Source of the DNA: a virus
Lineage: Duplodnaviria; Caudoviricetes
IMG/VR virus record: IMGVR_UViG_3300025018_000091
Direction: 5' to 3' (one strand)
DNA: 64,000 nt
Shown piece after piece: positions 4,849 to 60,286 of this stretch (positions are counted from its first letter, which is position 1; every line of letters begins with the position of its first letter). Under the pieces are notes generated by a model that ran no database searches, had not been told where the DNA came from, and saw only the letters and a program-made list of their open reading frames with translations. A program made the position numbers and the translations under genes.

Positions 4849-5481
4849 TCATCGAAAACTATAAGCCTTTTTTGTAATAGAAACAATATCACTAATATTT
4901 GCCATAGCTCCAATTCCAGTTGTCCCACAAGCCAATTTCTTAGAAATAGGCTCAACTAAAACAAATAGCCTCTTAGAAATTCCCGGAGAAACCCGTTCCA
5001 TATATCTGTGGAAATCAACATCACCATTTTTATAAAAACGATACATGTGTGTAAGTTCTTCTATATTACGATATGTTGCCGGATGATTCCACATATCAGT
5101 ATTCATTGCGGGAGCAACTACAATAGGCTTCTCTGCTTTCCATGCTCTAATTGTAGATGTCAATAGATTGTCAGACATTCCATGAGCAATCTTTGCTAGG
5201 GTGTTGGCTGTCAACGGTGCCACTACCAACACGTCTGCCCAATCTTTTAAATAGATATGAGGGATCATCATGGACCCGTCGTCGTTGACGCGCTCATACT
5301 TAATAGGAAATTCGTCTTGGTCGTGCCATGTGGGGCAATGATATGCTTCATCATCTACAAAATGTTTTGCAGAATCGGTCATAACAACATTAACTTCATG
5401 ACCATCATTCTGAAAAGCCATCACCATTTTAGGCGTAAGCTTTGCAGCAATGCTACCAGTAACTCCTAATAGAACTTTCAC
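4849..5481 (-). CDS. coaC: phosphopantothenoylcysteine decarboxylase (HFCD flavoprotein)
   Basis: MKVLLGVTGSIAA, HIYLKDWADVLVVAPLTANTLAKIAHG, APAMNTDMW; adjacent to coaB. Confidence 0.88.
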   Translation of the reverse strand: MKVLLGVTGSIAAKLTPKMVMAFQNDGHEVNVVMTDSAKHFVDDEAYHCPTWHDQDEFPIKYERVNDDGSMMIPHIYLKDWADVLVVAPLTANTLAKIAHGMSDNLLTSTIRAWKAEKPIVVAPAMNTDMWNHPATYRNIEELTHMYRFYKNGDVDFHRYMERVSPGISKRLFVLVEPISKKLACGTTGIGAMANISDIVSITKKAYSFR

Positions 5482-6191
5482 GGCTTCTCCCCTATAAAAA
5501 ATAACGTGTCATATAATCTTTTTGGCAAATCATTCCTATTACACCCAGAAAGATGATCTACTCCATTTTTATTGGAAACAATAAAAGCCCTATCTTTTGA
5601 CCATTCCAAACAATTTGCCACTATAATATCTGCACCTGAATGATGCATACTTTTTGTTGCAATATCCGCTAACTCTTCATCAGTCATTCCAACTTGAAGC
5701 TTGAACTTCACAAGCTTGCCTTTGAAGCCCCATGGATTACGAATCTTATCAATAATCTTTTCAGTAGGAACTAACTTCAAAAACAACTCATTAGCTGATG
5801 AAGAAATCTTCTTAGAAGAATCTATTTTCTCCATTCCAAAATATCCTTTTGAATTAGGAATATAAGTTCCCTCAACTTTATAGTCACTTACTGCCGCAGA
5901 ATGAATAACAACATCATAATCATTTGATATAATTTGTTCTTCCATTAAAGCACACAGCTCATCATATGTTTTATATGGAAGTATATTAATGTGCCTTATA
6001 TTTTCAACTAAATGATGATGTGGATTAGATGTAATTAACGTAACTTCATTTTGAAAATGAGAATCAATAGGCGCCTTATAACAAAAATATCTTGCTAATT
6101 CAGCTCCAGTTCTACCTTTAAAGATATTAGAAATACATCTTACCTTATCAATCATTACATTAGTAGAACCGGCAGTTATTAATATTTTCAT
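5478..6191 (-). CDS. coaB: phosphopantothenate-cysteine ligase
   Basis: MKILITAGST..ID.VRCISN...GRTG, HSAAVSDY, LVKFKL, ADIIVAN. Confidence 0.9.
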   Translation of the reverse strand: MKILITAGSTNVMIDKVRCISNIFKGRTGAELARYFCYKAPIDSHFQNEVTLITSNPHHHLVENIRHINILPYKTYDELCALMEEQIISNDYDVVIHSAAVSDYKVEGTYIPNSKGYFGMEKIDSSKKISSSANELFLKLVPTEKIIDKIRNPWGFKGKLVKFKLQVGMTDEELADIATKSMHHSGADIIVANCLEWSKDRAFIVSNKNGVDHLSGCNRNDLPKRLYDTLFFIGEKP

Positions 6192-6493
6192 GGTTTTCCT
6201 CTACTCCTACGTAATCTATCTTTATTCTTTTTAATTGTTACCTTACCGCCAGGATCTTGTTTAGAAATAAACTTAACCATCTTAGCAAAGACTTCATTGG
6301 TCATTAAAACTTCTGGAGTATTGTATTTCTCTTCTAATTCCTTATTGGAAAAACAAGCATGGATTGCTTTGTGGCAATCTCTACAAATTGTCTCTGTAGT
6401 TTTGCCACCCCTAGAACGCGGGACCATATGATGATCTGAAGGATAATAATTAAGTCTTTCGCATATTGGACATATCAAAAAAGAATCATCCAT
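6188..6493 (-). CDS. small HNH nuclease
   Basis: CPICER..SDHHMVPRSRGG....ICRDCHKAIH. Confidence 0.85.
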   Translation of the reverse strand: MDDSFLICPICERLNYYPSDHHMVPRSRGGKTTETICRDCHKAIHACFSNKELEEKYNTPEVLMTNEVFAKMVKFISKQDPGGKVTIKKNKDRLRRSRGKP

Positions 6494-6494
6494 T

Positions 6495-7328
6495 TTATTT
6501 AAGATTTGGTAAATGTAAATCTAGTTCATATCGAACTAACATATCAATTTGAATAACTAATCTTAATGGTAATGTAACTAGAAAACGAGGAGCAGAACCT
6601 AAAAAGTTCATAAGTTTCTTTTCTTCGTACCCCATTAGCGCATCTAACACTGATGTGTTGCGTTTCCTAATATCATCTAATTGCGTAGAATAATGAGGGT
6701 GCAATGATATCATATCTAAAACGCGAGAATCCTCATCAGAATTACTAGTACCAACACCTATTCCTTCTTTAATAAGAAAATCATAGACCAATGACTGAGT
6801 TTCAATATTAAACCTTTCATCTATAAGTTTTCTTATATTAGACTGACTATTAAGAGCATCTCTTAACTTATAGGCATGTTCTAGACATTTATAATAAAGA
6901 TTTAAATTCAAAGACCTATTTTTATATTCTTTCATATAATTAAGATCAATTGATTGCTCTTCAGTAATATCCAATGGGGTAGCATTGTCGCTATTTTTTA
7001 TAAAATCATCAAGAATATCTCGTAAATCTCCAACAGATATATCGTGAGTGTCATAATCTCTTGCTAATAGTAATTGTCCGTTATACATATGAAAATATGG
7101 AACAAGTATAGGAGTATTGCTCTGTTGTTTTATTTTTTGTAATTGTGCATCATGCATTAGCAAATACATAAATAATTTAATATCCCCACGTTTCCCGCTT
7201 GTAGTATGTGGGTTACTTGGTCTCATAGGTAATTCTTCTAGAAGTTTACACCAAGCCTCCTCAATACTTACCGGTACATCAGCCTTTTTAATATCATCTA
7301 ATAGTTCTTGATCATCAATCATAGACAT
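6495..7328 (-). CDS. hypothetical protein
   Basis: 277-aa open frame, no recognisable motif. Confidence 0.7.
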   Translation of the reverse strand: MSMIDDQELLDDIKKADVPVSIEEAWCKLLEELPMRPSNPHTTSGKRGDIKLFMYLLMHDAQLQKIKQQSNTPILVPYFHMYNGQLLLARDYDTHDISVGDLRDILDDFIKNSDNATPLDITEEQSIDLNYMKEYKNRSLNLNLYYKCLEHAYKLRDALNSQSNIRKLIDERFNIETQSLVYDFLIKEGIGVGTSNSDEDSRVLDMISLHPHYSTQLDDIRKRNTSVLDALMGYEEKKLMNFLGSAPRFLVTLPLRLVIQIDMLVRYELDLHLPNLK

Positions 7329-7362
7329 TAAATTTTCCCTTTTATAATATAGAATACAAATG

Positions 7363-7437
7363 TGGCAGGGATGCTAGGTGCTGCCCCTAATTTTGCGGAT
7401 TCAAAGTCCACGGTCCTAGCTGATGAACGACATCCCC
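7363..7437 (-). tRNA. tRNA-Gln(UUG)
   Basis: GUGGA-CU-UUG-AA-UCCGC arm, CCA encoded, non-canonical T loop (GGCAGCA). Confidence 0.82.
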
Positions 7438-7709
7438 ATTTTTAAATACTTAACTTCAATCCAACTATCAAACATATATGGTGGAATCCATATAGTGATA
7501 ACTCCGGTTTCTTTATTAAAAGAAACCGCTTTTAATTCATTAGATCGCGGTATACTAATGATCGAAACTACATCTTCTATGTTTGTATATGCAGCAGCTA
7601 TATTGTAATAATAACCAACTGCCCATGGTGGTATATAGAAGTTTTCTTTTATCAAATTTAATTCAGGTTTAATAACCGCAGGTATACGATATGGACTTTC
7701 CATACACCT

Positions 7710-7737
7710 AAATTAACCATGAAAAATAGCGCGTCAA
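7710..7737 (-). promoter_or_regulatory. sigma70-like promoter TTGACG-N16-TAATTT
   Basis: Intergenic, upstream of ORF 7416-7703. Confidence 0.5.
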
Positions 7738-7771
7738 GTATCTGCTCAATTTAATAATTTAATATCCATTT

Positions 7772-7847: not shown

Positions 7848-7893
7848 ATTGTCAATGCTCGCTACAACCTTTAACGTATGGACCAAGCAATGC

Positions 7894-7969
7894 TGGTAGC
7901 AGAGACGGGAATTGCACACCGTGACCTCCTGGGTATGAACCAGACGAGCTGCTTCTGTTCTACTCTGCA
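7894..7969 (-). tRNA. tRNA-Met(CAU), initiator-like
   Basis: UCUGG-UU-CAU-AC-CCAGG; unpaired 1:72; CCA. Confidence 0.82.
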
Positions 7970-10599: not shown

Positions 10600-10676
10600 T
10601 GGTCGTATAGGTGGGAATCGAACCCGACTTCTAACTGCTTGTAAAACAATCCTCCATACCAATTGAGTTCTATACG
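10600..10676 (-). tRNA. tRNA-Val(UAC)
   Basis: AUUGU-UU-UAC-AA-GCAGU; D arm nearly identical to neighbouring Ile(UAU). Confidence 0.85.
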
Positions 10677-13907: not shown

Positions 13908-13982
13908 TGGTGGTCTCACTAGGACTTTCACCTAGACCGCCTCCTGAAATGGAGGTATTCATAAAACTTAAACTACAAGACC
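13908..13982 (-). pseudogene. tRNA-like gene with 6-nt anticodon loop
   Basis: GGUCUUG/UGAGACC-ACCA; CCUCC-AUUUCA-GGAGG. Confidence 0.6.
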
Positions 13983-15424: not shown

Positions 15425-15508
15425 TGGTGGGGACGGTAGGATTCGAACCTACATTGCTCAAGACGGCATCTTTATCGGATGCTGAGAGACCCATCTCTCT
15501 TCGCCCCC
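15425..15508 (-). tRNA. Tyr-type tRNA body with atypical loop (nominal AUA, G33)
   Basis: GCAUC-CGAUAAA-GAUGC, long variable arm, canonical T arm, CCA. Confidence 0.6.
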
Positions 15509-16993: not shown

Positions 16994-17059
16994 AAGGTAA
17001 CAAAAAGTGTAAAGATTGTTTTTTTAATGGTTAGATGTAATCCTTACGGCATTTACCTT
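16994..17059 (-). ncRNA. Y-RNA-like ncRNA H (minimal, module only)
   Basis: AAGGUAA-AUGCC-GUAAGGAU-UACAU ... AUCUUUAC-ACUUUUUG-UUACCUU; 66 nt. Confidence 0.78.
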
Positions 17060-17134
17060 GGTAGGAAAGGTTGGACTTCAACCAACGTCCTGACAACCTT
17101 TACGTTGCCTGCTCTTTCTCTGAGCTACTTCCCT
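17059..17134 (-). pseudogene. tRNA-like gene with 6-nt anticodon loop
   Basis: AGGGAAG/CUUUCCU-ACCA; GCAAC-GUAAAG-GUUGU. Confidence 0.6.
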
Positions 17135-18394: not shown

Positions 18395-18911
18395 TCATTG
18401 TGTCCTCATCTTCTTAGCTAACGCCTCCTCAACATAAGGCGGAACAAACTTACTCACATCTCCACCAAACTTGTAGATTTGTTTAACCATAGACGAAGAC
18501 ACGACTGCCAATTTAGGATCCGTTGGAATGAATACTGTCTCAATTTTCGGCGCTAAAACTTTATTAATGCCAGCCAAATTAATTTCATATTCGAAATCTG
18601 AAACAGATCTAATTCCACGAATTAATATCTTCGCCATATGTTCTCTAGCAAAATCAGTTAACAACTTATCAAACGCTATAGCGTAAACAGAAGTTGGTAT
18701 ATATGGTGGCTTATCAGGATCTCCAAACTCACTTACTAAGAATTTAGTAATTAATTCCTGTCTTTCCTTAACAGAAAATAAAGGAGTTTTTCCTGGGTTA
18801 ATACCAATTCCCATAATCAATGTATCACAAAACTTCAAACTCCTATTGAAGATATCAATGTGACCATTCGTAATCGGATCAAAAAGATCCTGCGTAGATT
18901 GCAGTCACCAT
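18395..18911 (-). CDS. coaD: phosphopantetheine adenylyltransferase (frameshift in T run near 18892)
   Basis: MVTAIYAGSF/DPITNGHIDIF across the indel; RGIRSVSDFEYE; VSSSMVKQI. Confidence 0.92.
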
Positions 18912-19865: not shown

Positions 19866-20489
19866 TCATTTTCCCTTACCAAAAAATCCAGACTTAGAAG
19901 GTCCACTCATACGATATCTCTTCATAGACTTAGAGACGTCTTGATATAAGCTGCGAGTCCCTGCTGGTGTTGGCATATAATCCATCGTATTATGTTGTGC
20001 AACACCTATTGAAGCTCCTTCTGCCATAGAATCAATATTGGCTCCCATGAAAACAAATTCCCACTTATAAACATCTTGTTGATGTTCAACCATAGATTTA
20101 ATCTGTTCCTTAGAAAATTCTACACTAGAGTTCTCTTCGCCATCTGTAATGACCAAGAAGATAACCTTAGAAGGGCGTTCATCCTCTTCCATTGTAGCCA
20201 ACTTAGCACCAACAGAATTAATGGTTTTACCCAATGCATCTAACAAAGCAGTACCACCTGCCGCTCTATATGTAGAAGAATCTAAATCAGAAATATCTGC
20301 TAATACCTTACAGTCATGTACCAAAGTATAATCTATACTGAATATTGCTAGAGTCAATACTGCTTCACCGGGCACATCTCTTTGGTCGGCTAGAAACTGA
20401 TTGAATCCACCAATAGTGTCGGATGTCAATCTTTGCATAGAACCACTTCTATCTATAACTACATTAATTGAGGTAAAATTTTCTTTCAT
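19866..20489 (-). CDS. von Willebrand factor A domain protein
   Basis: VVIDRSGSM MIDAS, GGTALLDA, LVITDGEENSS. Confidence 0.9.
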   Translation of the reverse strand: MKENFTSINVVIDRSGSMQRLTSDTIGGFNQFLADQRDVPGEAVLTLAIFSIDYTLVHDCKVLADISDLDSSTYRAAGGTALLDALGKTINSVGAKLATMEEDERPSKVIFLVITDGEENSSVEFSKEQIKSMVEHQQDVYKWEFVFMGANIDSMAEGASIGVAQHNTMDYMPTPAGTRSLYQDVSKSMKRYRMSGPSKSGFFGKGK

Positions 20490-20521
20490 AATCGCTCCGT
20501 GGCTAGTGTTTAGTAACTGTA

Positions 20522-20908
20522 CTATATCAGTTTAAAACTTAATTTCTCTTGATGAGATAATTGTTTAATTTTGTATTCGAGCTTCATTGCTTCAGATTTT
20601 GTGGCGCAAAGATAATAAGAAACAATCCTAACTGGTCGTCTGGCTCTTGTATATTTTGCGCCCTTTCCATTATTGTGGATTTTTATTCTTTTCGCTAGAT
20701 TATTCGTAGCTCCCGTATATAATGTCCCATCGGCACATAATACAATATATGCTGCCCATTGTATTCCAATCTCAATAAGCTCTCGGCATGACTTGCAATA
20801 ATGCTGTTTTTTATCACAAGCAATTGCCATGGTCCTGCATTCACCTTGACCACAATTTAAACAAGGTGCATCACAGTAAGTATCATGTTCCCATGCAGTA
20901 TTCATCAC
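20522..20908 (-). CDS. GIY-YIG nuclease (YhbQ-like)
   Basis: AYIVLCADGTLYTGATNNLAKRIKIHNNGKGAKYTR. Confidence 0.88.
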   Translation of the reverse strand: MMNTAWEHDTYCDAPCLNCGQGECRTMAIACDKKQHYCKSCRELIEIGIQWAAYIVLCADGTLYTGATNNLAKRIKIHNNGKGAKYTRARRPVRIVSYYLCATKSEAMKLEYKIKQLSHQEKLSFKLI

Positions 20909-21756
20909 ACACCAAACACTTGTTTGAAAGTCGTATATATTGGCGTACCTTCTCTTGAATCATACACTGCAAAACATACATGACCAAAATCAGGGATATC
21001 AACCAATGCTTGCTTGAAAGCATTGGCTACCATATCTGGATCATTTCCAAACGCCCCACATCCCCATGCTCCAAGAATTATATTCTCATGTTGATAAAGT
21101 CTGGCAATATGTAGAATTTTCAATATCCTATTATAAATAACAGAATATAAAACCTTTTCATCTATATCCTCCATTGACCTTACGTTTGGGGCAGGTGCTG
21201 AAATTATAGATAAATAATATGGATTTTCAAGGAACTGATTATATTCATCCCTAAAGAAAGGAACATTGGGAGAATAGATTATATTATCTGTATAGAATGT
21301 ATCATCACAAAGAATGTTCTCATTATAGAACACAGGCTTACGTTTAGTACAAACATATAATCCAGAACGCCTACAAAGGTCTTCTTCTTGAGCAACCGCT
21401 CCAGATAAAAAGCCGCCGCCAACATTACGAGCAGAAGCAAAATTCAATGCCACTATATCTTTTTTATTATCAGCAAGCAAACGAACCGCTGCTTGTGTGG
21501 TTGTTTCATTTACAACATCTACGATAGGGGCTGTCACGCTGGCTACAGGCGAAGTAGGTTGAGCATAAATGGCAGGAGTTACATCCTGAAATAGTTTGGT
21601 ATGATCAATAGCTTCATCCAAAGCAAAAGAAATGTCAACAATATTTCCGCTTGGTGCAATATATTGTTTATGTTTTAATACATCTAGCGTATCTTTTGCG
21701 AGGGAAACATTCTTTGTCCTAGCATTCATTAATGCAACACCATCACGTTTAATCAT
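20905..21756 (-). CDS. TIGR02452 family macrodomain (microbial PARG-like)
   Basis: ALNFASARNVGGGFLSGAVAQEEDLCRRSGLY; IILGAWGCGAFGNDP. Confidence 0.9.
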   Translation of the reverse strand: MIKRDGVALMNARTKNVSLAKDTLDVLKHKQYIAPSGNIVDISFALDEAIDHTKLFQDVTPAIYAQPTSPVASVTAPIVDVVNETTTQAAVRLLADNKKDIVALNFASARNVGGGFLSGAVAQEEDLCRRSGLYVCTKRKPVFYNENILCDDTFYTDNIIYSPNVPFFRDEYNQFLENPYYLSIISAPAPNVRSMEDIDEKVLYSVIYNRILKILHIARLYQHENIILGAWGCGAFGNDPDMVANAFKQALVDIPDFGHVCFAVYDSREGTPIYTTFKQVFGV

Positions 21757-22319
21757 TTAATGTCACTTTCTATATCACGAATCGAATATGATGAATTAAA
21801 TCCTGGTTGTGGATGTAGTTTATTGCGCTCTAATAATTCATCTAATTTCTTTTCACAAGATGTCTTAGATTTAGATGCAAAGACAGGATAAGAATACCAG
21901 CACTCACCAATATCTTCGAATAATAAATATATCATTTGGTGCATCCCCCAAGATTCGAACTTCGGCAGATAAAATCCATTATAAACATCATGTGGTTGCG
22001 ATCCACAATATAGTTTATAGCTTCAATTAAAGGTTCAGTTAATCACCAGAAACATTAATCTTGATAATCGCCGCGCGATCAATTATCTATAATGCCTGAA
22101 AAGACACATATAGATAATCATCCTCCACACCAACCACAACCACCAGGAATATACCCACATTTTTTACAAAGTGTTCTTTTACAATGCCCACAATGACTGT
22201 ATGGTGTCCCAGTTATAAGTTCGTGGCATGACGAACATTTATAGTTCAATTGGCATGAAGAACAGTTATTATTCAATAACCAAACTTTGGTAATTTGTTT
22301 AACAAACCAATCCAAAATT

Positions 22320-22997
22320 TCATTTCTCTGCATATTTATTTCCTAATTTGGAACAAGATTTGCATTGTGTTGATTTATCATTCAATAAATCAAATGCCGA
22401 TACAATCGCTTCTTTATCACATTCGCAACGGCAATTGTATTTGTTACAACCATCAACTTTACTAATAATTGTCCAAGAATTGAACTTATCACCAACATTA
22501 AGATAAGTTCGTTTCTTTGGTGTAGTGAAAGCTTTCAGCGGCTCCCAGCCTTCTGATATTCTATCTTTTGCCAAAGTATATTGAATATTATATATTTCAC
22601 ACCACTCTACCATTGGTTTGGTTTCAGAACCAATGGTAATTAATTTGGTGGTCCTACGATTGCGAGCCTGCTGTTTATCAGTTGCCCAGCGACAATTATC
22701 AGGAGAATAATTCCCATCACTATCGATCCTATCAATAGAATGTTTGGCAGATGGCTTGAGCCCCATATCTTGATGGAAATTATCAAATCCATCAACACCA
22801 AGCCACCTATCACAAACAGTTATTCCTCTACCACCATAATTCTCATAAAAAGGAGTTTGTGGATAATAACACCTACGTATCATATGATACCAAGCATTAT
22901 ATTCTTTAGTCCTTGAATTTGAATATTTGTACTTAAATCTTGAGGGAAGATTAAAGTTTAATCTGCTCGATTGTGTTGACCCATAAGTCTGCATCAT
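22320..22997 (-). CDS. HNH-type homing endonuclease
   Basis: YNAWYHMIRRC, YGGRGITVCDRW, SIDRIDSDGNYSPDNCRWAT..QQARN. Confidence 0.88.
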   Translation of the reverse strand: MMQTYGSTQSSRLNFNLPSRFKYKYSNSRTKEYNAWYHMIRRCYYPQTPFYENYGGRGITVCDRWLGVDGFDNFHQDMGLKPSAKHSIDRIDSDGNYSPDNCRWATDKQQARNRRTTKLITIGSETKPMVEWCEIYNIQYTLAKDRISEGWEPLKAFTTPKKRTYLNVGDKFNSWTIISKVDGCNKYNCRCECDKEAIVSAFDLLNDKSTQCKSCSKLGNKYAEK

Positions 22998-24522
22998 TTC
23001 CGTACTCCATGAACTTATATATCACGTCAAATACAGAATCGCCGAATCCTCCAATGTTAAGCACGTCATTTCTCGAATGAGCTTGCGTAGTTGCTCCTGG
23101 TTGAATATCAATGCAAACTAGCTTTGCATTTGGGTTGTTTTTCTTAAACTTCTGCCAAGCATACATAGTAGCAGTGCTACGATAACGTCCAGAATCAACC
23201 CAAGACTCGTTATCTGAAACATAAATCACTAGGTCTCCCTTAGCTCCTTCACGATTCAGTTGTTCTAATGGAAGTGAACAGCTAGTTCCACCACCACCAA
23301 ACTTAGCTAGATAAGCTGCATTTGTCATGATAGAATCCATAGGATTCATCTTAGCATTATGCACCCTAGTATCGAAAGGCATAACTCTTGCTTCTGGGTT
23401 CTTACGCAAGATTGCTGCCGCAACCAAAGCTGCAACATCTACACAAGTCGTCTTTGAAGTCACCGTTGAACGGTATCCCGTTACTGGAGAAGCCATCGAA
23501 CCTGAAACGTCTACCATTACATAGACTTTCCCATTGATTTCAGGAATGTTCTCACAAGCTACTTCCGCAGCCTTTTGCAAAGCCATGTTTAACTTCATAG
23601 GAACCTTCTCATCAATGTTTTTGAAAGCCGTGAACAACTGATATGGGAATACCTTTGCTCTACGAATCTGCTCTGGATCTGCCAACTTATCTGCCAAAAC
23701 AGAAACCAACTTAGTATCTTCCAACACACCGTGGCGTGCGAAAGTATTCAAATTCATTCTGACCTGAGTCCAAGTTGCATTGTCAGCAATCTTCTTCCAG
23801 TGTTCCTTTGTTAGAGGCAAAGCAGTCAACATCTGGAAAGGAACGTTAGGGATCTCTCCCTTCATATCCTTCTTGAAGGCTTGGAACTGACGAACCAATG
23901 GGCATAGATCTTTTCTATTATACTCCTTGTCAAGCAAGTAAGCATACATAGCATTTCTATTCTTGTTCGTTGGACGAGGGTGTACCAACTTGATAATATC
24001 TTCTAGCGAAGGATCATTACCAACATTAGCCTTAAACAACTGCTCATCAGTCAACCCCTCAAGATAAGCCTGTATTAACTTCTTTGGACGAGTACCCAAA
24101 GACTTACGTCCCGTTGCTCCAGAACGAACAATCTGCACAAAATTGCGCACCATCTTTGGATTGTCAATGACCTTTGGAAAAATCTTCGAAAGGAGTTCTG
24201 GCGCTCTACCTGCAACCAAAGCTGCAAGAACAGCAGGCATATCCTTCATAAGTCCCTTCTGTCTCGAATACACTGCCAACTTTGCCAAGAACTCAGGACT
24301 AACCTTCTTGGAAAGTTCAAGTACCTTATTCAACTGATCCTTATCAGAAGCATAATACGTACCGTTAAGACAACCAGTCATTGCATACTGCGCAAGCGCA
24401 GCTTTATCACTCAACTTATAAGCCTGTCCTCCAGCTTCATTCACCGTATCGGCTGCTCTCACAACCTTAACTGAAGTTGACTTGCTGTTTGACTTGTTTG
24501 AGAATAGGTTCTTAGATGCCAT
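22951..24522 (-). CDS. rsr: Ro60/Rsr TROVE-domain ribonucleoprotein with C-terminal vWA
   Basis: NEAGGQAY..SDKAALAQYAMTG, MKDMPA, LRNF-like VRNFVQ, HPRP, VMVDVSGSM, GGGTSC, ISDNES-like YVSDNESW. Confidence 0.93.
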   Translation of the reverse strand: MASKNLFSNKSNSKSTSVKVVRAADTVNEAGGQAYKLSDKAALAQYAMTGCLNGTYYASDKDQLNKVLELSKKVSPEFLAKLAVYSRQKGLMKDMPAVLAALVAGRAPELLSKIFPKVIDNPKMVRNFVQIVRSGATGRKSLGTRPKKLIQAYLEGLTDEQLFKANVGNDPSLEDIIKLVHPRPTNKNRNAMYAYLLDKEYNRKDLCPLVRQFQAFKKDMKGEIPNVPFQMLTALPLTKEHWKKIADNATWTQVRMNLNTFARHGVLEDTKLVSVLADKLADPEQIRRAKVFPYQLFTAFKNIDEKVPMKLNMALQKAAEVACENIPEINGKVYVMVDVSGSMASPVTGYRSTVTSKTTCVDVAALVAAAILRKNPEARVMPFDTRVHNAKMNPMDSIMTNAAYLAKFGGGGTSCSLPLEQLNREGAKGDLVIYVSDNESWVDSGRYRSTATMYAWQKFKKNNPNAKLVCIDIQPGATTQAHSRNDVLNIGGFGDSVFDVIYKFMEYGNDADLWVNTIEQIKL

Positions 24523-26469: not shown

Positions 26470-27630
26470 TTAATCTTCTAAATATGAAGCTAAAAAGATC
26501 ATACCTAATACACACCAATCCATATTAGGGTTATTTAATAATTCTTTTACAGTATAAACTTCAATAAATGTTCTTTCTGTATCAGATTCTACACCATGAA
26601 CAATTCCCTTCTGAGACTTAAACCACTTCATTTCATCTTCAGTTAGTTCAACTGAATAAAAATATGATCTGTGTGATGATAGTGTTGCACATAGTTGACG
26701 AGACTGATGGAACTTAAGTCTATCTGGTTCTACTGCAAAACCTGTCTCTTCTAATACTTCTTCTGCTGCTACTACCTTTGGATGCTCTGTTTTCTTAGAA
26801 GATCCTCCGACTAACTCTCGAACAAATCCATCTTCAGATACTGATGGTGTTCTGAATTCTTTTACTATTATTAGTTCCGAATCCTCTAACTTATCTTCTC
26901 TCTTCCATAATAGAATAGAAGAAATGTCTGGTCTAGCCAGAACAAATTCATTTGTCTTATGACGGTCTTCGTCTTTAATATAAATATCCGCCTTTAAAAT
27001 CCACATAAATACAAAGCTTTTATGCCCCGGTCTAAATGAATATAAAACTTTAGCACCATCTAATCTGTTACCAGCTTTAGTCTGCGCATTATACCAAGAT
27101 TGAAATGAATCTAATTTCCAAATATACAGCGGAACAAAACGCTCACCACCAGCACGTTCCTCTCCCTTACCCAACATATCCATTGCATTAGTAAGAGTCT
27201 CAGTTAAAGAATCACCTATAGGAACATTATATTTCTCAGAATAATTCAATAGATATCTATTCTTTGGAGCATCTTCTGGGGCACCGAACACAATCTTTCC
27301 AGACTCACACCACATACCAAACTCAACATTTGTAGTAAATGCTGGCATTGTTTCTAAATCTCTTGGCACCCAGAATACAATACAATCTGCTATATTAAGA
27401 TGTTCTTCTTCCCACTCTATAATTTTTTCGTAATCAAAAGATTCATCAAACTTATTATCATTATTCTCTGGACAAAAAATAACACCATCATATCCCTTAT
27501 CACTTAAGATCTGTATTGCATCTTTTCGCCACGACTCTATATCTTGCCCAGATCTTACAGATGGTCCAGCCAAAAATATACTTTTATTAATTGTTTTTGG
27601 TAATTCATCATTATAATAAATGATTTGCAT
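26470..27630 (-). CDS. nucleoside 2-deoxyribosyltransferase-like / Nudix hydrolase fusion
   Basis: IFLAGPS..SWRKDA, IVFWVPR...TTNVEFG in N-half; ELVGGSS...AAEEVLEETG Nudix box in C-half. Confidence 0.8.
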   Translation of the reverse strand: MQIIYYNDELPKTINKSIFLAGPSVRSGQDIESWRKDAIQILSDKGYDGVIFCPENNDNKFDESFDYEKIIEWEEEHLNIADCIVFWVPRDLETMPAFTTNVEFGMWCESGKIVFGAPEDAPKNRYLLNYSEKYNVPIGDSLTETLTNAMDMLGKGEERAGGERFVPLYIWKLDSFQSWYNAQTKAGNRLDGAKVLYSFRPGHKSFVFMWILKADIYIKDEDRHKTNEFVLARPDISSILLWKREDKLEDSELIIVKEFRTPSVSEDGFVRELVGGSSKKTEHPKVVAAEEVLEETGFAVEPDRLKFHQSRQLCATLSSHRSYFYSVELTEDEMKWFKSQKGIVHGVESDTERTFIEVYTVKELLNNPNMDWCVLGMIFLASYLED

Positions 27631-29450: not shown

Positions 29451-31586
29451 ATGATCTGGCTAACCAAACTACTAAAGAATATTGATGGCTTCTACACTAA
29501 AGCTACTGGTGATGTAAATCTTGCCGAAACCCGCGAGCAGATGAAGGCAAGATTACGTGAAGAGGCTTTAAGAGAAAGAGAGTTAGAAAAAGAGCAAGAA
29601 TTAAAACAGCAAGAAACATTTGAAATCCAAGAGCAAAAACAAAATGATGCAGAATCTGTTGGAAGAAAAGCATTACAAAAATTAAATTCAATAAATATAC
29701 CAGATCCGCTTCATGAAGATTTTAATCATTTTATGAGAGTATATACTGAGATATTTACTTTGGTTAATGATCTAAAACCAAATATGGTAAGTGAAAAATT
29801 AAATGAAGCTTATCAAGCTGCGTCTAATATAAAAAATGAAACTACATCTTATGAAGATGATATTAAAACATTTGAAGAAAAAGCTACTAAATTAGCTCAA
29901 TTCGCCAAGCATCATATAGTTTTAGCAGTTGATAGATTATTAAATAATCCTTATTTAAGAAAAAGTAAAACGGCAGAAGATGCCGCTAAAGAGTTGTCTG
30001 GACAAGAAGATCCTACATCCCCAATGTGGCAAGATTATAATGTTAGTGCATTAGAATTTGTTGAATTGATTGATGCTCTTGGTGAGGATGCACAAGAAAC
30101 AGCTATATATGCTTTAGGAGGAATAGAACAAATTGTAACATTAGTTCAAGCTGATTTCAAAGAGGATGAGGATAGGCGTACAAATATGGAGGGTGAGGGA
30201 CTTGGTGAAGCAATTCAACAAGGATTCCGCCCAATGCAAGATAAGCAACAGGCTGTAAACAGGGCAGTTAGCACGTTTAAAGCAAACTGTAGAGAAGCCT
30301 TAAGATTTGAAAAAAATAATAATTTTCACGAACATATTGCATCTGCCAGAATATGGGCGGCTCAACGTAAAAGATACGAAGAAGCATTAAAAGCAGACCC
30401 AGTAAGACACGCAAAACAATTAGAAAAAAATAGAAAAAATTCTGCTCGTTATAGAGAGCGAATGGTTATAATTGGTGGTATCAAAGAGGCTTGGGATACA
30501 GCTACTACACCAACTGATAGAAACAAAGTATTTAGCGAACTGAAAAGCTTTTATAGAAATAAACTCTATACTAGAGGACTCGATGGAGAAGCTCTTAGAG
30601 CAGCTGAAGCTATGTTACCTCCACCAGAAGAATTGTTAAAGAAAAGTTTTAATGAACTTGATAAGTATAATAAATCATTAGTAAAAACTAAAGAAAAAAT
30701 AAATATAAGGAATAGAGAAAGTAAAACTAATCGTGGAATAGTAGATTTAGCTACAATAGTATTTGGTCAAAAAATTAATAGCAGACCCAGTGACATGAAA
30801 AGAACTAAACAAACTAAAGAATTATTTAGAGCTAAATTAGCATCGTATGAAAATACACAATTAGTAAAATACAATCGTGATATAGAATTAGCTCACGAAA
30901 AGATAATGAATGCCACAAATACTATGGATAAAGTTAAAGCAGAAATGGAATTAAATAATGCTAAAGCTAATCTTGCTAAAGCTGAATCTGCTATTAAAGA
31001 TCAATTAGACCCAGTTGAAAAAGTAAGATACCATGTGAAAAAATTAAAAGAAATACAAAAGATGGTTAAGGAACTAATCAAGATGGGTATCATAGATAAT
31101 AATGGATTAGTACAGCCAGAAAGAGCCCCATTAGTTAAAATAGTTGTTGATCAAGGATATCAATTATTAAGTGAATATCCATTTCAAGATATGGTAGAGG
31201 CAACAGTAGGTAAAGAATTACTTGATAAACTATCCCAATTAATTTCTGATAATCCAGAAGAAACTCAGGAAGAAACTCAAGAATATAATATTGAAGAATT
31301 AACTCCACCCGATATAGATCTCACTGAGAAACTTTCAGTTCTAAAGACAGGACCTATTATGAATAAGAAATCTCGTAAAAAATTATTACAAAAAATTGAA
31401 AAACAAGCTCTGCAAAAGACATCTATTCAGACTATATTGGATAGAGCGGCTCCTGTTGATATGAATCTGCCCAGCAAAGAATATGCTAGACAAGTATTTC
31501 GTTCTATAACTAATGCTGTTGCAGATACTATTGATGATGATTTTGATAGATTAATCGCAGAATTAGAAGCTGAAGATCAGCAATAA
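29451..31586 (+). CDS. large alpha-helical/coiled-coil hypothetical protein
   Basis: 711-aa Glu/Lys-rich ORF, no recognisable motif. Confidence 0.7.
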   Translation: MIWLTKLLKNIDGFYTKATGDVNLAETREQMKARLREEALRERELEKEQELKQQETFEIQEQKQNDAESVGRKALQKLNSINIPDPLHEDFNHFMRVYTEIFTLVNDLKPNMVSEKLNEAYQAASNIKNETTSYEDDIKTFEEKATKLAQFAKHHIVLAVDRLLNNPYLRKSKTAEDAAKELSGQEDPTSPMWQDYNVSALEFVELIDALGEDAQETAIYALGGIEQIVTLVQADFKEDEDRRTNMEGEGLGEAIQQGFRPMQDKQQAVNRAVSTFKANCREALRFEKNNNFHEHIASARIWAAQRKRYEEALKADPVRHAKQLEKNRKNSARYRERMVIIGGIKEAWDTATTPTDRNKVFSELKSFYRNKLYTRGLDGEALRAAEAMLPPPEELLKKSFNELDKYNKSLVKTKEKINIRNRESKTNRGIVDLATIVFGQKINSRPSDMKRTKQTKELFRAKLASYENTQLVKYNRDIELAHEKIMNATNTMDKVKAEMELNNAKANLAKAESAIKDQLDPVEKVRYHVKKLKEIQKMVKELIKMGIIDNNGLVQPERAPLVKIVVDQGYQLLSEYPFQDMVEATVGKELLDKLSQLISDNPEETQEETQEYNIEELTPPDIDLTEKLSVLKTGPIMNKKSRKKLLQKIEKQALQKTSIQTILDRAAPVDMNLPSKEYARQVFRSITNAVADTIDDDFDRLIAELEAEDQQ

Positions 31587-32194
31587 TCTTTAAGATAATC
31601 AATTAGATGTTGAGTTACATTTTCAATTGATTTAAAGATATATACTGTATTTTTGGAACCCAAAACTTTCATTGAATCAGATTTCTCACCAGGAATCTTA
31701 AAGTTATATTCTAACCATCTAGATTTCGGCAACATGCTGGCTGATGATAACCAGAAGCAATAGTCTCTCATAACTGAGATACCAATTGATTCATAATCTT
31801 GAACATCAGAGTTCCCGTCAGTTCTATTAAGAAATACAACTACATCGGTATTATAATCAAATAGTCTACAGAAATCTCTTGGATTAAAGATTCCATCTAT
31901 AATCCAATTGTATCTTAAGCCATTTAATTTCTCTATAGAAGAGATAGATGCATAAACATTATTTGTAATGATATCTGGATTATCTTTTAATCTATTTGTA
32001 ACATATAAATGATATTCTTCTTCAAATTGATTATCAGTTTCATTTAAAAGTTTCTCTCTAAATGTATGTCTTATCCAATCAACTGCACTAATATGAAAAA
32101 ACTCTTGTCCCTTTGCGGTTGAAAAACACTGAACTAACTGTCTTGATACAGTAGTCTTTCCTGATTTTGGTAGTCCAACAATAAAAATTTTCAT
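31577..32194 (-). CDS. P-loop nucleotide kinase-like protein
   Basis: IFIVGLPKSGKTT Walker A, WIIDG. Confidence 0.65.
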   Translation of the reverse strand: MKIFIVGLPKSGKTTVSRQLVQCFSTAKGQEFFHISAVDWIRHTFREKLLNETDNQFEEEYHLYVTNRLKDNPDIITNNVYASISSIEKLNGLRYNWIIDGIFNPRDFCRLFDYNTDVVVFLNRTDGNSDVQDYESIGISVMRDYCFWLSSASMLPKSRWLEYNFKIPGEKSDSMKVLGSKNTVYIFKSIENVTQHLIDYLKDYC

Positions 32195-37291: not shown

Positions 37292-37409
37292 TTGTGGGGC
37301 AGGTGAGATTCGAACTCACAATCATTACTAGTGTACTCAGTAATGATAGGCGTTTAAAAGTCGTACACTACTCTTAAATCGCCCGCGTATTCCATTCCGC
37401 CACCGCCCC
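37292..37409 (-). ncRNA. tRNA-Leu(UAA)-derived RNA with extended anticodon and variable arms
   Basis: GGGGCGG-UGGCGGAAUGGAAUACGCG Leu D arm, canonical T arm; UAA buried in a 9-bp stem. Confidence 0.7.
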
Positions 37410-42531: not shown

Positions 42532-43089
42532 TTAAGATTGATTTTCTAAAAATAGGCACCATGCCATAAGAGTTACACCATCATCTAATTCATTAGTTCG
42601 AATCATATGTTTGAAATCAGAGATAGGAATCCAACTACGTGTTAGTCCCGTAAACTCTTCGTATTCTTCCAGTTCTGTTTCAGTTTCAACGAAATCATTA
42701 ACTAAATAAACATAGCATGTATTGTTATTCTGCCCAGATATTGGGTGACATTTTCCAAGAAAAATCAAATAGTTAGGCTTAATTCCTGCCTCTTCTTTTA
42801 ATTCTTTAATTACTGCTTGTTCTGGAGAATCTCCAGGGTCGATCATTCCGGCAACAAACTCAGTATTTATTCCGCGAACTGGATGACGATATTGATCTGT
42901 TACTAGAATCTCATTACCTCTAAGGACAATGCAGGTTACAAAATCAGGACACTTAATAGAATAATAATTCTTTCTAAGAGTTTTAGTTTTATCATTAACC
43001 TTTCGTTCAAACAAAAGATCTTCAGAAACTAATGTCATATATTCACTGCTGAATTCAATTTTAATATCAATAACTTTTGGTTTGTACAT
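42532..43089 (-). CDS. Nudix hydrolase (ADP-ribose pyrophosphatase-like)
   Basis: QYRHPV..EFVAGMIDPGDSPEQAVIKELKEEAG. Confidence 0.88.
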   Translation of the reverse strand: MYKPKVIDIKIEFSSEYMTLVSEDLLFERKVNDKTKTLRKNYYSIKCPDFVTCIVLRGNEILVTDQYRHPVRGINTEFVAGMIDPGDSPEQAVIKELKEEAGIKPNYLIFLGKCHPISGQNNNTCYVYLVNDFVETETELEEYEEFTGLTRSWIPISDFKHMIRTNELDDGVTLMAWCLFLENQS

Positions 43090-44376: not shown

Positions 44377-46208
44377 AGATAACTCACATTAACATCATCT
44401 TCGAACTTAAGCTTTCCCATTTCAAATAGTTCAATTGCTAATTCAATTAAATGGATAGCTTGCTCTTCTGTTGCATTGATTCCTTTGTCACCCATAGATG
44501 ATTCTTCACTATCATCAAAACAAATCATAGATACGTCGGACTTCTTATCTTCAATCGTAATGATTGTTCTTCCGCACATCGTATAAGTGAGAACTTTGAA
44601 ATCTTCAATGGGAGTTTTAGTTGCGGAAACACCTTTGAATTTAGATTTACTAATAGTGTCTTGCAGTCCCTTAAACCAAACCTTCTTTTCAAATTCCTTC
44701 ATCTTATTATAGATTCTCTGAAATGAAGCACGTATTTCTAATTGAAGTCGAACTTCCTCTAACTCTTCTGGAGTGCCACTCTCTATAATATCATAAAATC
44801 TTTTGTGTTTATACTCACGACGATCTTGCTCATGCCAAGACCAAGCCCTTCCAATGTCTATTAAATCTAAGATATTAGAAGTAAGTAATCTTGTAGTAAG
44901 AACTTTTGTTTCTCGATACTTTTGAATAGTATTTAAACGATCACACTCAAAACAATGAGCGCCAATTAATTCAGAACCCTTGTATGTATAGCAATACCCC
45001 TGTTCTAAAGATGCATTACATTGGTCACAAGTTGTAGGTTTATCATCCATTATTCATGATCTTTCTTATCAAACAAGTTTTTATATCGATCTGGTTTATT
45101 CCTTAATAATAGGAACAGGAATATAAATATTACAATAATAGAAGATACTGATGTTAATGTGTCCATATTTAAATCTTATTAGGATAATATTCTTTTCCCA
45201 TTATTGAAAGAGTCTTGCGCCATTCAAATTCATGCAGACATTCTAGGCTGCAAAACCTACCATCGAAGTTTCCTATCTTAGCTATAGCAACAAACATCTT
45301 TGTGCCACAGACATTACAGTAAACAGTTTGCTTACCTATATAGGTAGTAGACCCATTCTTAACAGACACAAGTCCAAGCTTCTGCAATTGAAAATCTATT
45401 GGATGAGCAGTTGATGGACTACTAACTCTCAAGTCCTTCAAGCGTTCCAGTAACGAATTCTTATCAAGATCACTTAACTTTAAATCTTCTAGTTTCATTT
45501 TTAAATCCCCAAATTAAAATGCACCGCAATAGCAGCGCATTTTTTTTTTTTTGTTATTTTCAAATTAAATACATTTATTCTTCGGCGTGAAGCATAGCCA
45601 CGAATTGTTCAATTAATTCATATTCTCCAGGTCTACACTCTCGAAGATTATCTTTCTGCAACGCACCTTTAAGTAGAGGAGTAACCAGCAGCATCTTTTT
45701 AGATAGATCCTTTAAAATCTTAGTGGCATGAGATTTTCTTCCACTACCTATCTTAACAGAAGGTTTAACAATCGTAACCTTTTCAGGGTTTACTGTAACC
45801 CTTTCAGAGTTTGTTTCTTGCGGTAAAGAAATCTTAGAAACAGCTTCCTGAAACGGAGTCATCTTCTCTGTGGAAGATAATGTTCTAGGTTTCACTCTCC
45901 ATTGCTGTTTATTTTTTACGAAATAAACTTCAGCTACAAAAGTCTTACCAATTAATGCGCTACATTTAAAGGGGCTGCCACCTACGTTATCGTAAAACAT
46001 CATACGATTCGTAGATGTATATCCCGACCTAATCATTTTCTTTTGGGGATAAAGAATATCGAAGGAAACTTTAGATTCCCAAATTACCTCGGTCCATTTT
46101 CCATCATCACTAATATGTTTAACTGTTAGATCTAATACTTGATTTGACATTTATTTTCCTGTTCGCTTGACGTGGCACGAACGCCTCAGTAGAATATAAT
46201 GTCTAAAA

Positions 46209-57075: not shown

Positions 57076-57631
57076 ATACTTATGATTATATATCATGATA
57101 TTAGCTGATTTGAATAGCTAACATCATTTTACATAATCATAAGGCTATTTTATAATAGCACACCAAGCTCTCAAAATAGCAAACACACTTGGTAACCTCA
57201 CCACTTCTCTTTTAGCGCGCATAGATGGCAGGTGACGCCAAATCTAAATCTTCAGTAATCATTGGCTTCAGATTCGTCATAAACATCATGTTCATCAAAA
57301 TCAAGCTCACCCTCTTCCTCTTCTTCATCAAGAGGTACAAGCTCTCCATCATCAGATTCAGTAAGACCAGTATAGATGATAATTTGCCGTCGTTATCAGT
57401 ATCAATCTGATAGCTTGGCAAGATTTCCTCAAGCGCCTCTTCTAGTTCCTCAAGAGTCATGTTCATATCTCCATGTCAAATCATTACCAATGATTAAAAG
57501 ATATTAGTAAAAATTGAGGGACAGTTACCTATCCCCCAATCCCCACTATTCGCTCATCAAATCTCACCTAACCGTGAGCCTGTCTTGAATTTATATTCAA
57601 ATTCGTGGTTGATCGTAGCAGTATCTATGAA

Positions 57632-57994
57632 TTATTCTGATTCGTCAGTCGCAGGCGCAGCAGCCTTACGGCTAACACCGCCGCCCTTACCCTTAGTGAT
57701 GGTCAGCGAACCACCTTCGCCAGCCATACCCTGAATGTGAGCATGAATACGCTTCGTAACAGCACCATGCTCAGCAGGAGTTGCACCAAGGTCAGCCACC
57801 GAAAGGGAGACCAATGCAGGCATTGGAAGGGTTTGACCAGGGTATCGATCAAACACCGCATTCACAACATCACTCAAGAGTTCCGGGTCAGTTTCATTCT
57901 CATTGACCCAAGCCTGCAACGCTTCAGCATACTTCGAAGCAGAAGCAACCACATCAACCGCACCACTCGTATCACGTACCGTAAACTTATCCAT
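57632..57994 (-). CDS. winged-helix-like protein (VTRGxxGG family, copy 3)
   Basis: LTITKGKGGGVSR. Confidence 0.45.
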   Translation of the reverse strand: MDKFTVRDTSGAVDVVASASKYAEALQAWVNENETDPELLSDVVNAVFDRYPGQTLPMPALVSLSVADLGATPAEHGAVTKRIHAHIQGMAGEGGSLTITKGKGGGVSRKAAAPATDESE

Positions 57995-58098
57995 TTTTCA
58001 TTCTCCTTACAGAAACAATTTCCGACAATTAAACTCAGACCATCTGAGTATTAATACTTTAATGTTGGATATATATACCAATACTTTAGTATAATATC

Positions 58099-58758
58099 AT
58101 GTTTTATGTATACAAACTAACTAACAAATCGAATTTCAAAAGTTATATTGGAAAATCCAACGATGCTTTAAAAAGACTACGCACACATATAAAAATTTCA
58201 AAAGGAGGCAAAGCAAAATATCCTAGAAAATTTCATGCAATTCATGCAGCTATAGCTAAGTATGGCATCGAGAGTTTCTATTTTGAAATATTACATCAGG
58301 TAGAATCAGAAGAACAAGCATTTGAATTAGAAACAAATGAAATTCTTAAGATAAGAAAATTAGGCATTAATGTTTATAACCTTAGTGATGGCGGTGAAGG
58401 TAATTCAGGATGGCACCATACTAATGAATCTAAATTAAAAATGTCTATTACACGCAAAGGTCGAGTATTTTCAAGTGAACACAAAAAAGCATTATCAAAA
58501 GCTCAAAGTGGCAATAAACATTCTCAATTTGGAAAACATCAAGATATATCTTGGAAAGAAAAGAAAAGTAAATTAACATCAAAACAAGTTTCTGATATTA
58601 AATACTTAATCAAGATAGGCACAAAACAAAGTCTAATAGCCAATACATATGGCGTAAGCATATCTACTATAAGTATGATTAAATCCGGTAAAATATGGAA
58701 TGAAGTTATTACTTCGTCTGAGGAGAATTATTCTGGTCTACCTGTGCCAATTTCGTAA
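58099..58758 (+). CDS. GIY-YIG homing endonuclease with NUMOD3-like repeats
   Basis: FYVYKLTN....YIGKS, YNLSDGGEG, HTNESKLKMS. Confidence 0.9.
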   Translation: MFYVYKLTNKSNFKSYIGKSNDALKRLRTHIKISKGGKAKYPRKFHAIHAAIAKYGIESFYFEILHQVESEEQAFELETNEILKIRKLGINVYNLSDGGEGNSGWHHTNESKLKMSITRKGRVFSSEHKKALSKAQSGNKHSQFGKHQDISWKEKKSKLTSKQVSDIKYLIKIGTKQSLIANTYGVSISTISMIKSGKIWNEVITSSEENYSGLPVPIS

Positions 58759-58993
58759 TTCCACCATGAGCACCTCTGGTAACTGAAACCCCAGGATATC
58801 CTTCCAAAAGGAACTTAATGGTAGGATATAGCGCAGGACCAGTCATTCCGATTTCCTCAGCCAAATCCTTTGCAAGACCTGTCGCCGTAACCTTCTCACC
58901 AACCTTGAGAGCTTCAATGCGAGTAGAAGCTTTCTCAAAAATATTACGAATCTTATTGAGCGACGCATCGATATGACTATTATTCATGTTCAT
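58709..58993 (-). CDS. winged-helix-like protein (VTRGxxGG family, copy 4)
   Basis: VSVTRGAHGGITK; downstream of 24-bp motif copy 4. Confidence 0.5.
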   Translation of the reverse strand: MNMNNSHIDASLNKIRNIFEKASTRIEALKVGEKVTATGLAKDLAEEIGMTGPALYPTIKFLLEGYPGVSVTRGAHGGITKLAQVDQNNSPQTK

Positions 58994-59059
58994 GTTGTAC
59001 TTCCTTTGCTAACATTTTCTTGTTCATTGCAGCGCTCTACGTCGCCGCTACATACCCTA

Positions 59060-59083
59060 GCTTGCCCCCCTCACTCGATGGGG
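59060..59083 (-). promoter_or_regulatory. 24-bp dispersed upstream motif, copy 4
   Basis: GCTTGCCC-CCC-TCACTCGATGGGG. Confidence 0.7.
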
Positions 59084-59680
59084 CGGCGTCCGCCCTCACT
59101 GTAATCAGAAGTTATATTGCAACCACAACTTAGCTGCTTTTCTAGCACGAGCAGGAACGTTCTTTGATTGCAAAAGACTCTGCATAACAGCAGTAGTTAT
59201 TTGATGGTTGTCTTGCTCACCGTCAAAACCCTTCAGACGAATAGGCTTCTCAAGCAAACGACCAAGAGCAATATGACGAGCAAGACTTCGCTCAAACTTA
59301 TCGACAGGATTCAACACTGACATTTGATACCTAACAGTGCTACGATCCTTACTCAAGGAAATCGCAACACAACCAACAGGATTGGACCTCTCATCCCTAA
59401 GATACATAACTCTACGATTCTGTTTCATTTTCTTTCTCTCTTTCTAATTAGTAATTGGCGATAGCATTATATCGTCTTTCTTCTCTATCAAACGTATGAT
59501 AAGCTCTAACAGCTTGTTGGAACTCATCTGCTTTCTTCACACTAATTGTAGGTGGATAATTTCTGATTGAAGGAAATTTATCACAAACCTCTAGAATTAC
59601 TTGGCGTGGTCTGCGTTTCAATAGCGCAAGTGTAACCAAAATATCATTGGTGCTTACAATCATTTTTAATTATCTCCTAC

Positions 59681-60286
59681 TTATACAGGATAATTTGTCC
59701 GAATTTTTTGAATAACTAATTGCGCTTGCTGCGCAGTTTCTTCTACGGTTCCAGAGGAATCAATTACGAAATCCGCTACCTTAATCTTTTTTTCCCTCGG
59801 AAGTTGTGATTTCAATCTAGCCACGGCTTCGTCGTATGTCAAGAGGTTGCGGCGCATCATTCTCGCGATTTGCGTTTCAGGCGCACAATGCACCACAATC
59901 AAGGGACGGTAACGCTCCGCGTCGCCAGCCTCGACGATTAATGCAGAGTCAAACCCAACGATTTTATTACCAGCATTATGAAACTTATCTATTTGATTGT
60001 CAGCTTCTTTTCTGATAAGAGGAATCATTATTGAATCTAACTTTAATCTAGCTTCTTTATTAAAAAAGATAAGATTAGCAAGTTTCTTTCTATCTAAGTA
60101 ACCATCATATGTAAAGTATTGTGGACCAAAAGTATTAAACAATTTACTATGACCAGTTGTACCTAGTTGAACTATTTCACGAGCAACTTCATCAGCATCA
60201 ACCATAGGTATATCATTCTCTTTAAAGAACTTAGTTATACGGCTTTTACCACAGGCAATACCGCCTGTTAAACCAAATGTTACCAT
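59681..60286 (-). CDS. coaE: dephospho-CoA kinase
   Basis: FGLTGGIACGKS, DADEVAREIV, LDRKKLA.LIF, Q.ARMMRRN, ARLKSQ. Confidence 0.93.
   Translation of the reverse strand: MVTFGLTGGIACGKSRITKFFKENDIPMVDADEVAREIVQLGTTGHSKLFNTFGPQYFTYDGYLDRKKLANLIFFNKEARLKLDSIMIPLIRKEADNQIDKFHNAGNKIVGFDSALIVEAGDAERYRPLIVVHCAPETQIARMMRRNLLTYDEAVARLKSQLPREKKIKVADFVIDSSGTVEETAQQAQLVIQKIRTNYPV

Follow-up and report, generated by a model that had tools for sequence, protein, structure and literature searches.

The closest described counterpart of the gene studied here is bacterial prfB, the gene of release factor 2 (RF2). A 5' Shine-Dalgarno stimulator ranks among the main features of RF2 frameshifting, and UUU_U is the shift site of a minority of RF2 genes (PMC5009743). 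Late steps of coenzyme A (CoA) biosynthesis have in turn been reported from viruses. The coaD and coaE genes are listed as viral auxiliary metabolic genes in snow viromes (PMC11097641), and a phosphopantetheine adenylyltransferase (PPAT, the product of coaD) occurs in the jumbo cyanophage PhiMa05 (PMC8093824); both were read as support for host metabolism in infection. Here we describe coaD and three accompanying CoA genes in IMG/VR record IMGVR_UViG_3300025018_000091. The stretch analysed, referred to as the window, comprises 64,000 nt of an uncultured huge phage, and the contig to which its proteins map is 444,127 bp long. Unlike the earlier reports, which concern one or two genes and give no mechanism, four consecutive steps are encoded here and one of them appears to be gated by recoding. 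The coaD gene is not one uninterrupted reading frame, its body lying in the +1 frame after a UGA at codon 11, and the most plausible reading of this break is a prfB-like programmed +1 ribosomal frameshift. We consider it likely that the phage encodes the four steps from 4'-phosphopantothenate to CoA, relies on its host for pantothenate kinase (PanK), and expresses coaD only via a +1 shift at codon 10. The CoA pathway itself is a recurrence of a known phage trait; the novel part is the coaD frameshift.

The coaD break and its conservation

All four CoA open reading frames (ORFs) lie on the minus strand. The elements of coaD are as follows.

18882..18911, minus strand: coaD ORF1, the zero-frame ten-codon leader MVTAIYAGSF, from direct reading, with its ATG at 18911
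18395..18880, minus strand: coaD ORF2, the +1-frame PPAT body, 161 aa plus stop (18395-18397), starting DPITNGH
18878..18891, minus strand: +1 recoding site A GGA UCU UUU U GAU, extra base at 18881, conserved in 13 genes

Direct reading places the codon-11 UGA at 18881-18879. A first-pass annotation of the window had reported a one-base indel in a T run of coaD (18395-18911); it is present, as one extra T within the run 18885-18881. In the recoding site, a Shine-Dalgarno-like AGGA is followed after a 3-nt spacer by the slippery Phe codon UUU, with the extra U (18881) and the +1 Asp codon GAU behind it. The body alone scores 131 bits against TIGR01510, above the cut-off of 103, matches 34 solved PPAT structures with E values from 1e-23 to 1e-34, and contains the motifs TNGH, IRGIRSVSDFEYE and VSSS. 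The G-S-F of the leader joins D-P-I-T-N-G-H in frame solely via a +1 shift, and the unshifted product is devoid of an HxGH-type motif. A -2 shift was rejected because it would insert a second Phe and break the GxFDP spacing. In every frameshift-type gene the start reads ATGGTGA (18905-18911, minus strand, in the window), the TGA of which closes the +1 frame at the start codon, so that initiation further upstream could not reach the CoaD body. A second TTTTGA site, at 44952, is a chance match within an ordinary ORF.

Among the earliest relatives obtained from IMG/VR, one with 51% identity (L005) carries an extra base at the same codon junction. Further relatives found by protein search had been called as "MQDLFDP..." or "MQEPFDP..." proteins, which correspond to the +1 frame read from an ATG made by the Tyr codon and the following G. 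The DNA of the relatives follows the pattern ATG GTG Ann Gnn nTn TAY GCn GGR nnn TTT [T or C] GAT CCn. Scanning JGI metagenomes and IMG/VR with conserved downstream peptides yielded, together with the earlier loci, 158 loci with a recognisable coaD. The extra base is present in 16 of them, representing 11 distinct genes with the window included, and no break was found elsewhere in coaD among the 158. Two loci fetched later (L273 and L274) bring the total to 13 distinct frameshift-type genes, the others being those of the window, L005, L010, L012, L013, L015, L017, L024, L048, L054 and L057. The extra base lies in all 13 between the Phe and Asp codons of the GxFDP motif, downstream of the same ATG GTG leader. 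These genes derive from different studies, assembled independently (ENA, JGI, Logan), and show 50-77% protein identity to the window. One apparent truncation, a 141-aa call in a 438-kb phage (L014), is actually an in-frame coaD for which the gene caller picked an internal ATG.

The window probably originates from groundwater, its probable source run being an aquifer metagenome; none of the runs found to contain the stretch is an RNA run. An independent Logan contig of the probable source run is identical across the coaD site and keeps the five Ts at a depth of 17.8, and in two other studies diverged relatives span the T run without an indel at that place. Synonymous differences occur on both sides of the site and in both frames. 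Between frameshift-type genes, the downstream frame shows a ratio of nonsynonymous to synonymous substitution rates (dN/dS) of 0.05-0.29, at near-saturated synonymous sites, and is under purifying selection. The concern that the indel might be inactivating was thus not borne out, the break being conserved and the frame behind it selected.

The extra base is U in eight genes, C in five and a purine in none. The shift site is accordingly UUU_U or UUU_C in 13/13, and the zero-frame A-site codon is UGA in eight genes and CGA in five. Either base thus leaves a Phe codon (UUU or UUC) in the +1 P site in every case. UGA is an ordinary stop in this phage, ending 31 of 82 ORFs; among the Arg codons of the window CGA is a minor one, with a share of 9%. 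Codon usage at the site was compared among the CoaD genes of the huge-phage clade. The Gly codon that precedes the shift by two positions is GGA or GGG in 10/10 frameshift genes tested versus 8/48 in-frame genes (Fisher P = 8e-7), and the Phe codon is UUU in 10/10 versus 27/48 (P = 0.009), P values that overstate significance since the sequences are related and the counts are not phylogenetically independent. Three frameshift genes outside the Gly-codon test also have GGA, and in-frame sister genes mostly have GGC or GGT, often with UUC. Every frameshift gene thus has GGR located 3 nt 5' of the slippery codon. The stimulatory Shine-Dalgarno of prfB has the same 3-nt spacing before its shift codon, and the start-site Shine-Dalgarno sequences of genes in this phage are AAGG or GAGG.

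Taken together, the GGR bias, the conservation of the site and the purifying selection make error and decay untenable for practical purposes and indicate a +1 shift made on the ribosome by peptidyl-tRNA-Phe. Both the ribosomal nature of the shift and its efficiency are inferred. In the proposed mechanism, peptidyl-tRNA-Phe would occupy UUU in the P site while a slow zero-frame codon stands in the A site (in the window UGA, a stop read by RF2 only; in some relatives CGA, a rare Arg codon), with the Shine-Dalgarno-like GGA three bases upstream of the slippery codon. The tRNA would then re-pair with UUU or UUC one base on and the Asp codon GAU would be read next, restoring the active-site motif G-S-F-D-P-I-T-N-G-H. 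Non-shifting ribosomes would release a 10-residue peptide, and the shift may set or regulate the level of CoaD. One CoA step would in this reading be placed under translational control. Beside the shared ancestry of the genes compared, the distribution of the break counts against this reading: frameshift-type genes are scattered over the CoaD tree, a poorly resolved phylogeny of a 160-residue protein that forces at least three changes, so that repeated gain, or loss by one-base deletion, must be assumed. Our literature search found no paper describing coaD frameshifting.

Both coaD and prfB have a short zero-frame leader ending in UGA and a Shine-Dalgarno-like element upstream. In both, the P-site codon would re-pair one base on, the UUU_U of coaD being used by a minority of RF2 genes (PMC5009743), and functional protein would come solely from shifting ribosomes. 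The phage gene differs from prfB in that it encodes a metabolic enzyme and not the stop-reading factor, so any dependence on RF2 would be regulation in trans. Its leader is also shorter, with 10 codons versus 25 in E. coli prfB, the base after its UGA is U and not C, its Shine-Dalgarno-like element is only GGA or GGG, and in a sizeable minority of relatives the stop is replaced by the sense codon CGA.

Two complete relatives encode a full-length RF2 that scores above the prfB equivalog cut-off and forms a single open frame with no internal stop (L268, G016 425384-426427; L269, G001 406836-407882). Since relatives encode their own RF2, a phage could use it as a timer that switches CoaD off late in infection. 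We propose, as a tentative idea, that huge phages gate CoaD by a prfB-like +1 frameshift that reads the termination or decoding capacity of the cell, and that phage RF2 could time a late switch-off. If this were true, CoaD synthesis from the UGA form would fall as RF2 rises, and coaD would be the first viral metabolic gene for which a programmed +1 frameshift is described, as well as the first case of the RF2 sensor acting in trans.

Automatic pipelines miscall the frameshift-type coaD genes, giving either truncated proteins or "MQDLFDP..." proteins whose start lies within the leader, and as a result a conserved recoding event in an abundant environmental phage gene family would have been overlooked. 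The site may be regarded as a natural +1 cassette, compact at about 15 nt, in which a stop and a rare sense codon are interchangeable as the A-site trigger, and could serve to test the interplay of P-site slippage, A-site delay and a minimal Shine-Dalgarno element.

The CoA pathway and its possible roles

The three other CoA genes of the window are listed below; together with coaD they are spread over three places along 55 kb of phage DNA.

4849..5481, minus strand: coaC, phosphopantothenoylcysteine decarboxylase (PPCDC), 210 aa, GTG start; Pfam Flavoprotein, Cys clamp
5478..6191, minus strand: coaB, monofunctional phosphopantothenate-cysteine ligase-like protein of the Patescibacteria/huge-phage type, 237 aa; Pfam DFP
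59681..60286, minus strand: coaE, dephospho-CoA kinase (DPCK), 201 aa; Pfam CoaE 1.4e-49; TIGR00152

Hidden Markov model searches, matches to solved structures and family-defining residues confirm the four genes where the first-pass annotation had placed them. Four consecutive steps are encoded, as it had proposed, namely phosphopantothenoylcysteine synthetase (PPCS), PPCDC, PPAT and DPCK, and the catalytic motifs look intact. CoaE scores 139 bits against TIGR00152 (cut-off 65.6) and matches the Aquifex aeolicus structure 2if2 at 8.5e-30; its P-loop GGIACGKS and its DAD motif (VDADE) align with those of solved DPCKs.

CoaC matches the Flavoprotein family PF02441 (HFCD fold) at 2e-37 across residues 1-201. 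Its closest solved relatives are human PPCDC (1qzu, 5e-36) and Arabidopsis AtHAL3a (1.6e-33), whereas the EpiD and MrsD peptide decarboxylases are matched at 1e-10 to 1e-12 only. The segment IPHIYL aligns with the His of AtHAL3a, PAMNTDMW with its PxMNxxMW motif and KKLACGTTGIGAM with its Cys175. KKLACG forms the Cys clamp, in which the column of Cys175 holds Ser in the C175S mutant entry 1mvl. This clamp is specific to phosphopantothenoylcysteine decarboxylases and EpiD-type enzymes are without it. By its sequence, then, the CoaC-like protein is a phosphopantothenoylcysteine decarboxylase and not EpiD-like; the clamp and the stronger PPCDC/HAL3a matches answer, at that level, the worry that it might act on another substrate.

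CoaB passes the Pfam DFP threshold (PF04127, 5.5e-24, 85 bits, cut-off 22), and its sole solved relative is Streptococcus pneumoniae 2gk4. It belongs to a large family of 215-245 residues in which the ISN, AAVSDY and K-I-S motifs are invariant, among them N22, D103-Y104 and K128 of the phage protein, and which has an unusual NIFKG loop. The nearest cellular members of this family, 46-54% identical, are mostly Patescibacteria. The coaB and coaC genes overlap by 4 nt (GTGA), the GTG start of coaC lying over the stop of coaB. The coaB-then-coaC adjacency is kept in a 442-kb sibling phage (L164), in one cellular contig and in 10/10 IMG/VR viral records holding the family. Upstream, an HNH endonuclease gene (6188-6493, minus strand) overlaps the start of coaB by 4 nt. 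It may be a mobile insertion, since the gene calls of the 442-kb sibling include no HNH-family gene upstream of coaB.

The predicted reactions are the same four as those of bacterial CoaBC, CoaD and CoaE (E. coli Dfp, PPAT 1b6t, DPCK 1vhl) and of the split CoaB/CoaC of Streptococcus (2gk4). The phage proteins share with the bacterial enzymes the TNGH (HxGH-type) and RGIR...DFEYE motifs of CoaD, the P-loop and DAD motif of CoaE, and the His, PxMNxxMW motif and Cys clamp of CoaC. Unlike in the bacterial CoaBC fusion, CoaB and CoaC are separate genes, B then C, and CoaC is nearer eukaryotic PPCDC (5e-36) than bacterial CoaBC (6e-18). The phage system departs from the bacterial pathway also in the Patescibacteria affinity of its CoaB family, in the location of its genes at three places and in the lack of PanK from the window. 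In the predicted pathway, CoaB would join cysteine to 4'-phosphopantothenate, CoaC would remove the carboxyl group, CoaD would add AMP and CoaE would phosphorylate dephospho-CoA, with the PanK step left to the host.

The absence of PanK from the window, part of the initial claim, held when the 78 further window ORFs were scanned for the PanK family. PanK of types I and III was not found in 13 related huge-phage records either, four of them complete; this negative rests on these two types, the type II search having matched no control genome and being uninformative. The only kinase-like window ORF that could stand in for a missing kinase step encodes a 205-aa P-loop kinase-like protein (31577-32194, minus strand; AAA_18, with weak adenylate-kinase similarity), for which no CoA-related subfamily was matched.

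The first-pass annotation had further called the pathway unusual for phages, an overstatement as far as this group is concerned. CoaD and CoaE occur commonly in it, the searches giving 667 matches at E <= 1e-20 and 1509 matches at E <= 1e-25, respectively, many of them on contigs that, like those of this huge-phage group, span hundreds of kb. The CoaB-CoaC pair is less common but recurs, being present in 10 IMG/VR records. Among GenBank huge phages, LR756501/3 have the adjacent CoaB-CoaC pair, LR756500 has only CoaB of the pair, and all three have CoaE. Two other IMG/VR records hold all four CoA genes, G006, in a contiguous coaB-coaC-coaD/coaE cluster, and G014, a 312-kb genome with terminal repeats. 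CoaD and CoaE lie there in one open frame of 395-411 aa (L258/L264, G006 99083-100102; L257/L265, G014 258076-259122) and are apparently fused. A complete 480-kb relative has CoaD only, as many relatives do.

The examined phages repeatedly take steps downstream of PanK and never PanK itself, which suggests that flux is raised past the regulated entry step of the host. In the E. coli CoA pathway, PanK is the main control point and PPAT (CoaD) the second, which fits phages that add downstream capacity together with an extra control on CoaD. The pathway would raise the supply of CoA or dephospho-CoA during infection. The first-pass annotation had mentioned CoA-depleting defences as another context; a literature search found no paper describing such a defence.

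Several observations count against a complete four-step pathway that serves the phage in this way. CoaB falls below the NCBIfam equivalog cut-offs (PRK06732, 2.7e-32, 112 bits versus 265; TIGR02114, 90.5 bits versus 217) and its nucleotide loop reads NIFKG versus NHSSG in canonical enzymes, so that the substrate of CoaB is a predicted one. The search of this phage for PanK covered the 64-kb window of a 444-kb genome, and the benefit to the phage is putative.

We regard as unlikely that the genes have a narrower purpose, that is, that they supply dephospho-CoA for RNA 5' caps or 4'-phosphopantetheine for carrier proteins, or that CoaB and CoaC act on a pantothenate analogue. The divergent loop of CoaB and the many relatives that keep CoaD alone would agree with such a role, as would the synteny of coaD with RNA-centred genes (Ro60/TROVE, PARG, GIY-YIG and tRNA arrays), which is conserved between the window, L010, L013 and L014. 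CoaE, the consumer of dephospho-CoA, is however also encoded, and no acyl carrier protein or phosphopantetheinyl transferase family turned up in the window. The two Nudix-like genes, noted at the outset, would also fit the narrower purpose. One is clear (42532-43089) and the second a weak match in the C-terminal half of 26470-27630, but the Nudix protein fits no CoA- or cap-specific subfamily, the best being NudE at 38 bits versus a cut-off of 169.

RNA repair and ADP-ribose or NAD chemistry are the focus of the coaD region. With 19866-24522 (minus strand) and coaD taken together, the order is Ro60 (TROVE+vWA), PARG, GIY-YIG, two unknown genes, coaD and a tRNA array, and this order from Ro60 to the tRNA array is conserved in the same three relatives. 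The window also encodes Tpt1/KptA, a SpoU methylase, an isochorismatase-like protein and a nucleoside deoxyribosyltransferase-like/Nudix fusion.

Other routes across the coaD break, and the tRNA genes

The downstream frame could in principle be reached without a prfB-like event, through a phage tRNA with an expanded anticodon loop reading UUUY or through slippage of RNA polymerase on the T run. The window does contain an odd tRNA (17059-17134, Rfam 42.8 bits) 1.3 kb downstream of coaD, with an anticodon loop CGUAAAGG or GUAAAG, and relatives have just downstream of coaD tRNAs with 8-nt loops (UAAA, GGAA, UUAA) or tRNA-Phe(AAA). These tRNAs are not tied locally to the frameshift: L001, L002, L006 and L008 combine such a tRNA with an in-frame coaD, whereas L011 and L013 have a +1 coaD with no odd tRNA nearby. 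A UAAA anticodon would moreover pair with UUUA and not UUUY. As decoders of the coaD site the odd tRNAs were set aside, local co-occurrence lending them no support, and our literature search found no paper on natural phage tRNAs with expanded loops. Transcriptional slippage is countered by the shortness of the T3-C and T5 runs and by the GGR bias, which indicates the ribosome. Both routes therefore appear improbable to us.

That the extra T is an assembly or sequencing error, or that coaD is a recent pseudogene in a phage with three working CoA steps, is largely refuted and scarcely credible: the break does lie in a homopolymer (T5), the usual site of indel errors, auxiliary genes are often lost and the closest relatives include in-frame coaD genes (L019, L020, P0002, P0003), but the identical +1 position recurs in 13 diverged genes from independent assemblies, five of which read UUU-C with no long homopolymer, the 158 loci are broken nowhere else in coaD, dN/dS downstream of the break stays at 0.05-0.29, and the independent contig of the probable source run is identical at its depth of 17.8.

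The window is AT-rich (GC 32-39%) and contains 23 tRNA genes called by ARAGORN, homing endonucleases and PHROG-type phage genes. Searched at the DNA level against GenBank phages, the window, including coaD and coaBC, gave no match. The odd tRNA at 17059-17134 and a second one at 13908-13982, both on the minus strand, have non-canonical T loops, and the anticodon loop of the second is AUUUCA. The odd tRNAs of relatives lie at 3848-3924 in L001, 3587-3662 in L002, 5243-5320 in L006 and 3690-3766 in L008. A tRNA-Tyr with anticodon AUA stands beside a normal tRNA-Tyr(GUA) in the window (15425-15508, minus strand) and in the relative L013 (5159-5243). Three Rfam tRNA matches on the minus strand were left uncalled by ARAGORN (37295-37409, 10603-10676 and 7897-7969), one of them 115 nt long and probably carrying an insert. 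Finally, a full-length bacterial class A RNase P RNA is located at 1413-1761 (minus strand; RF00010, 278 bits, model positions 1-367), near tRNA arrays.

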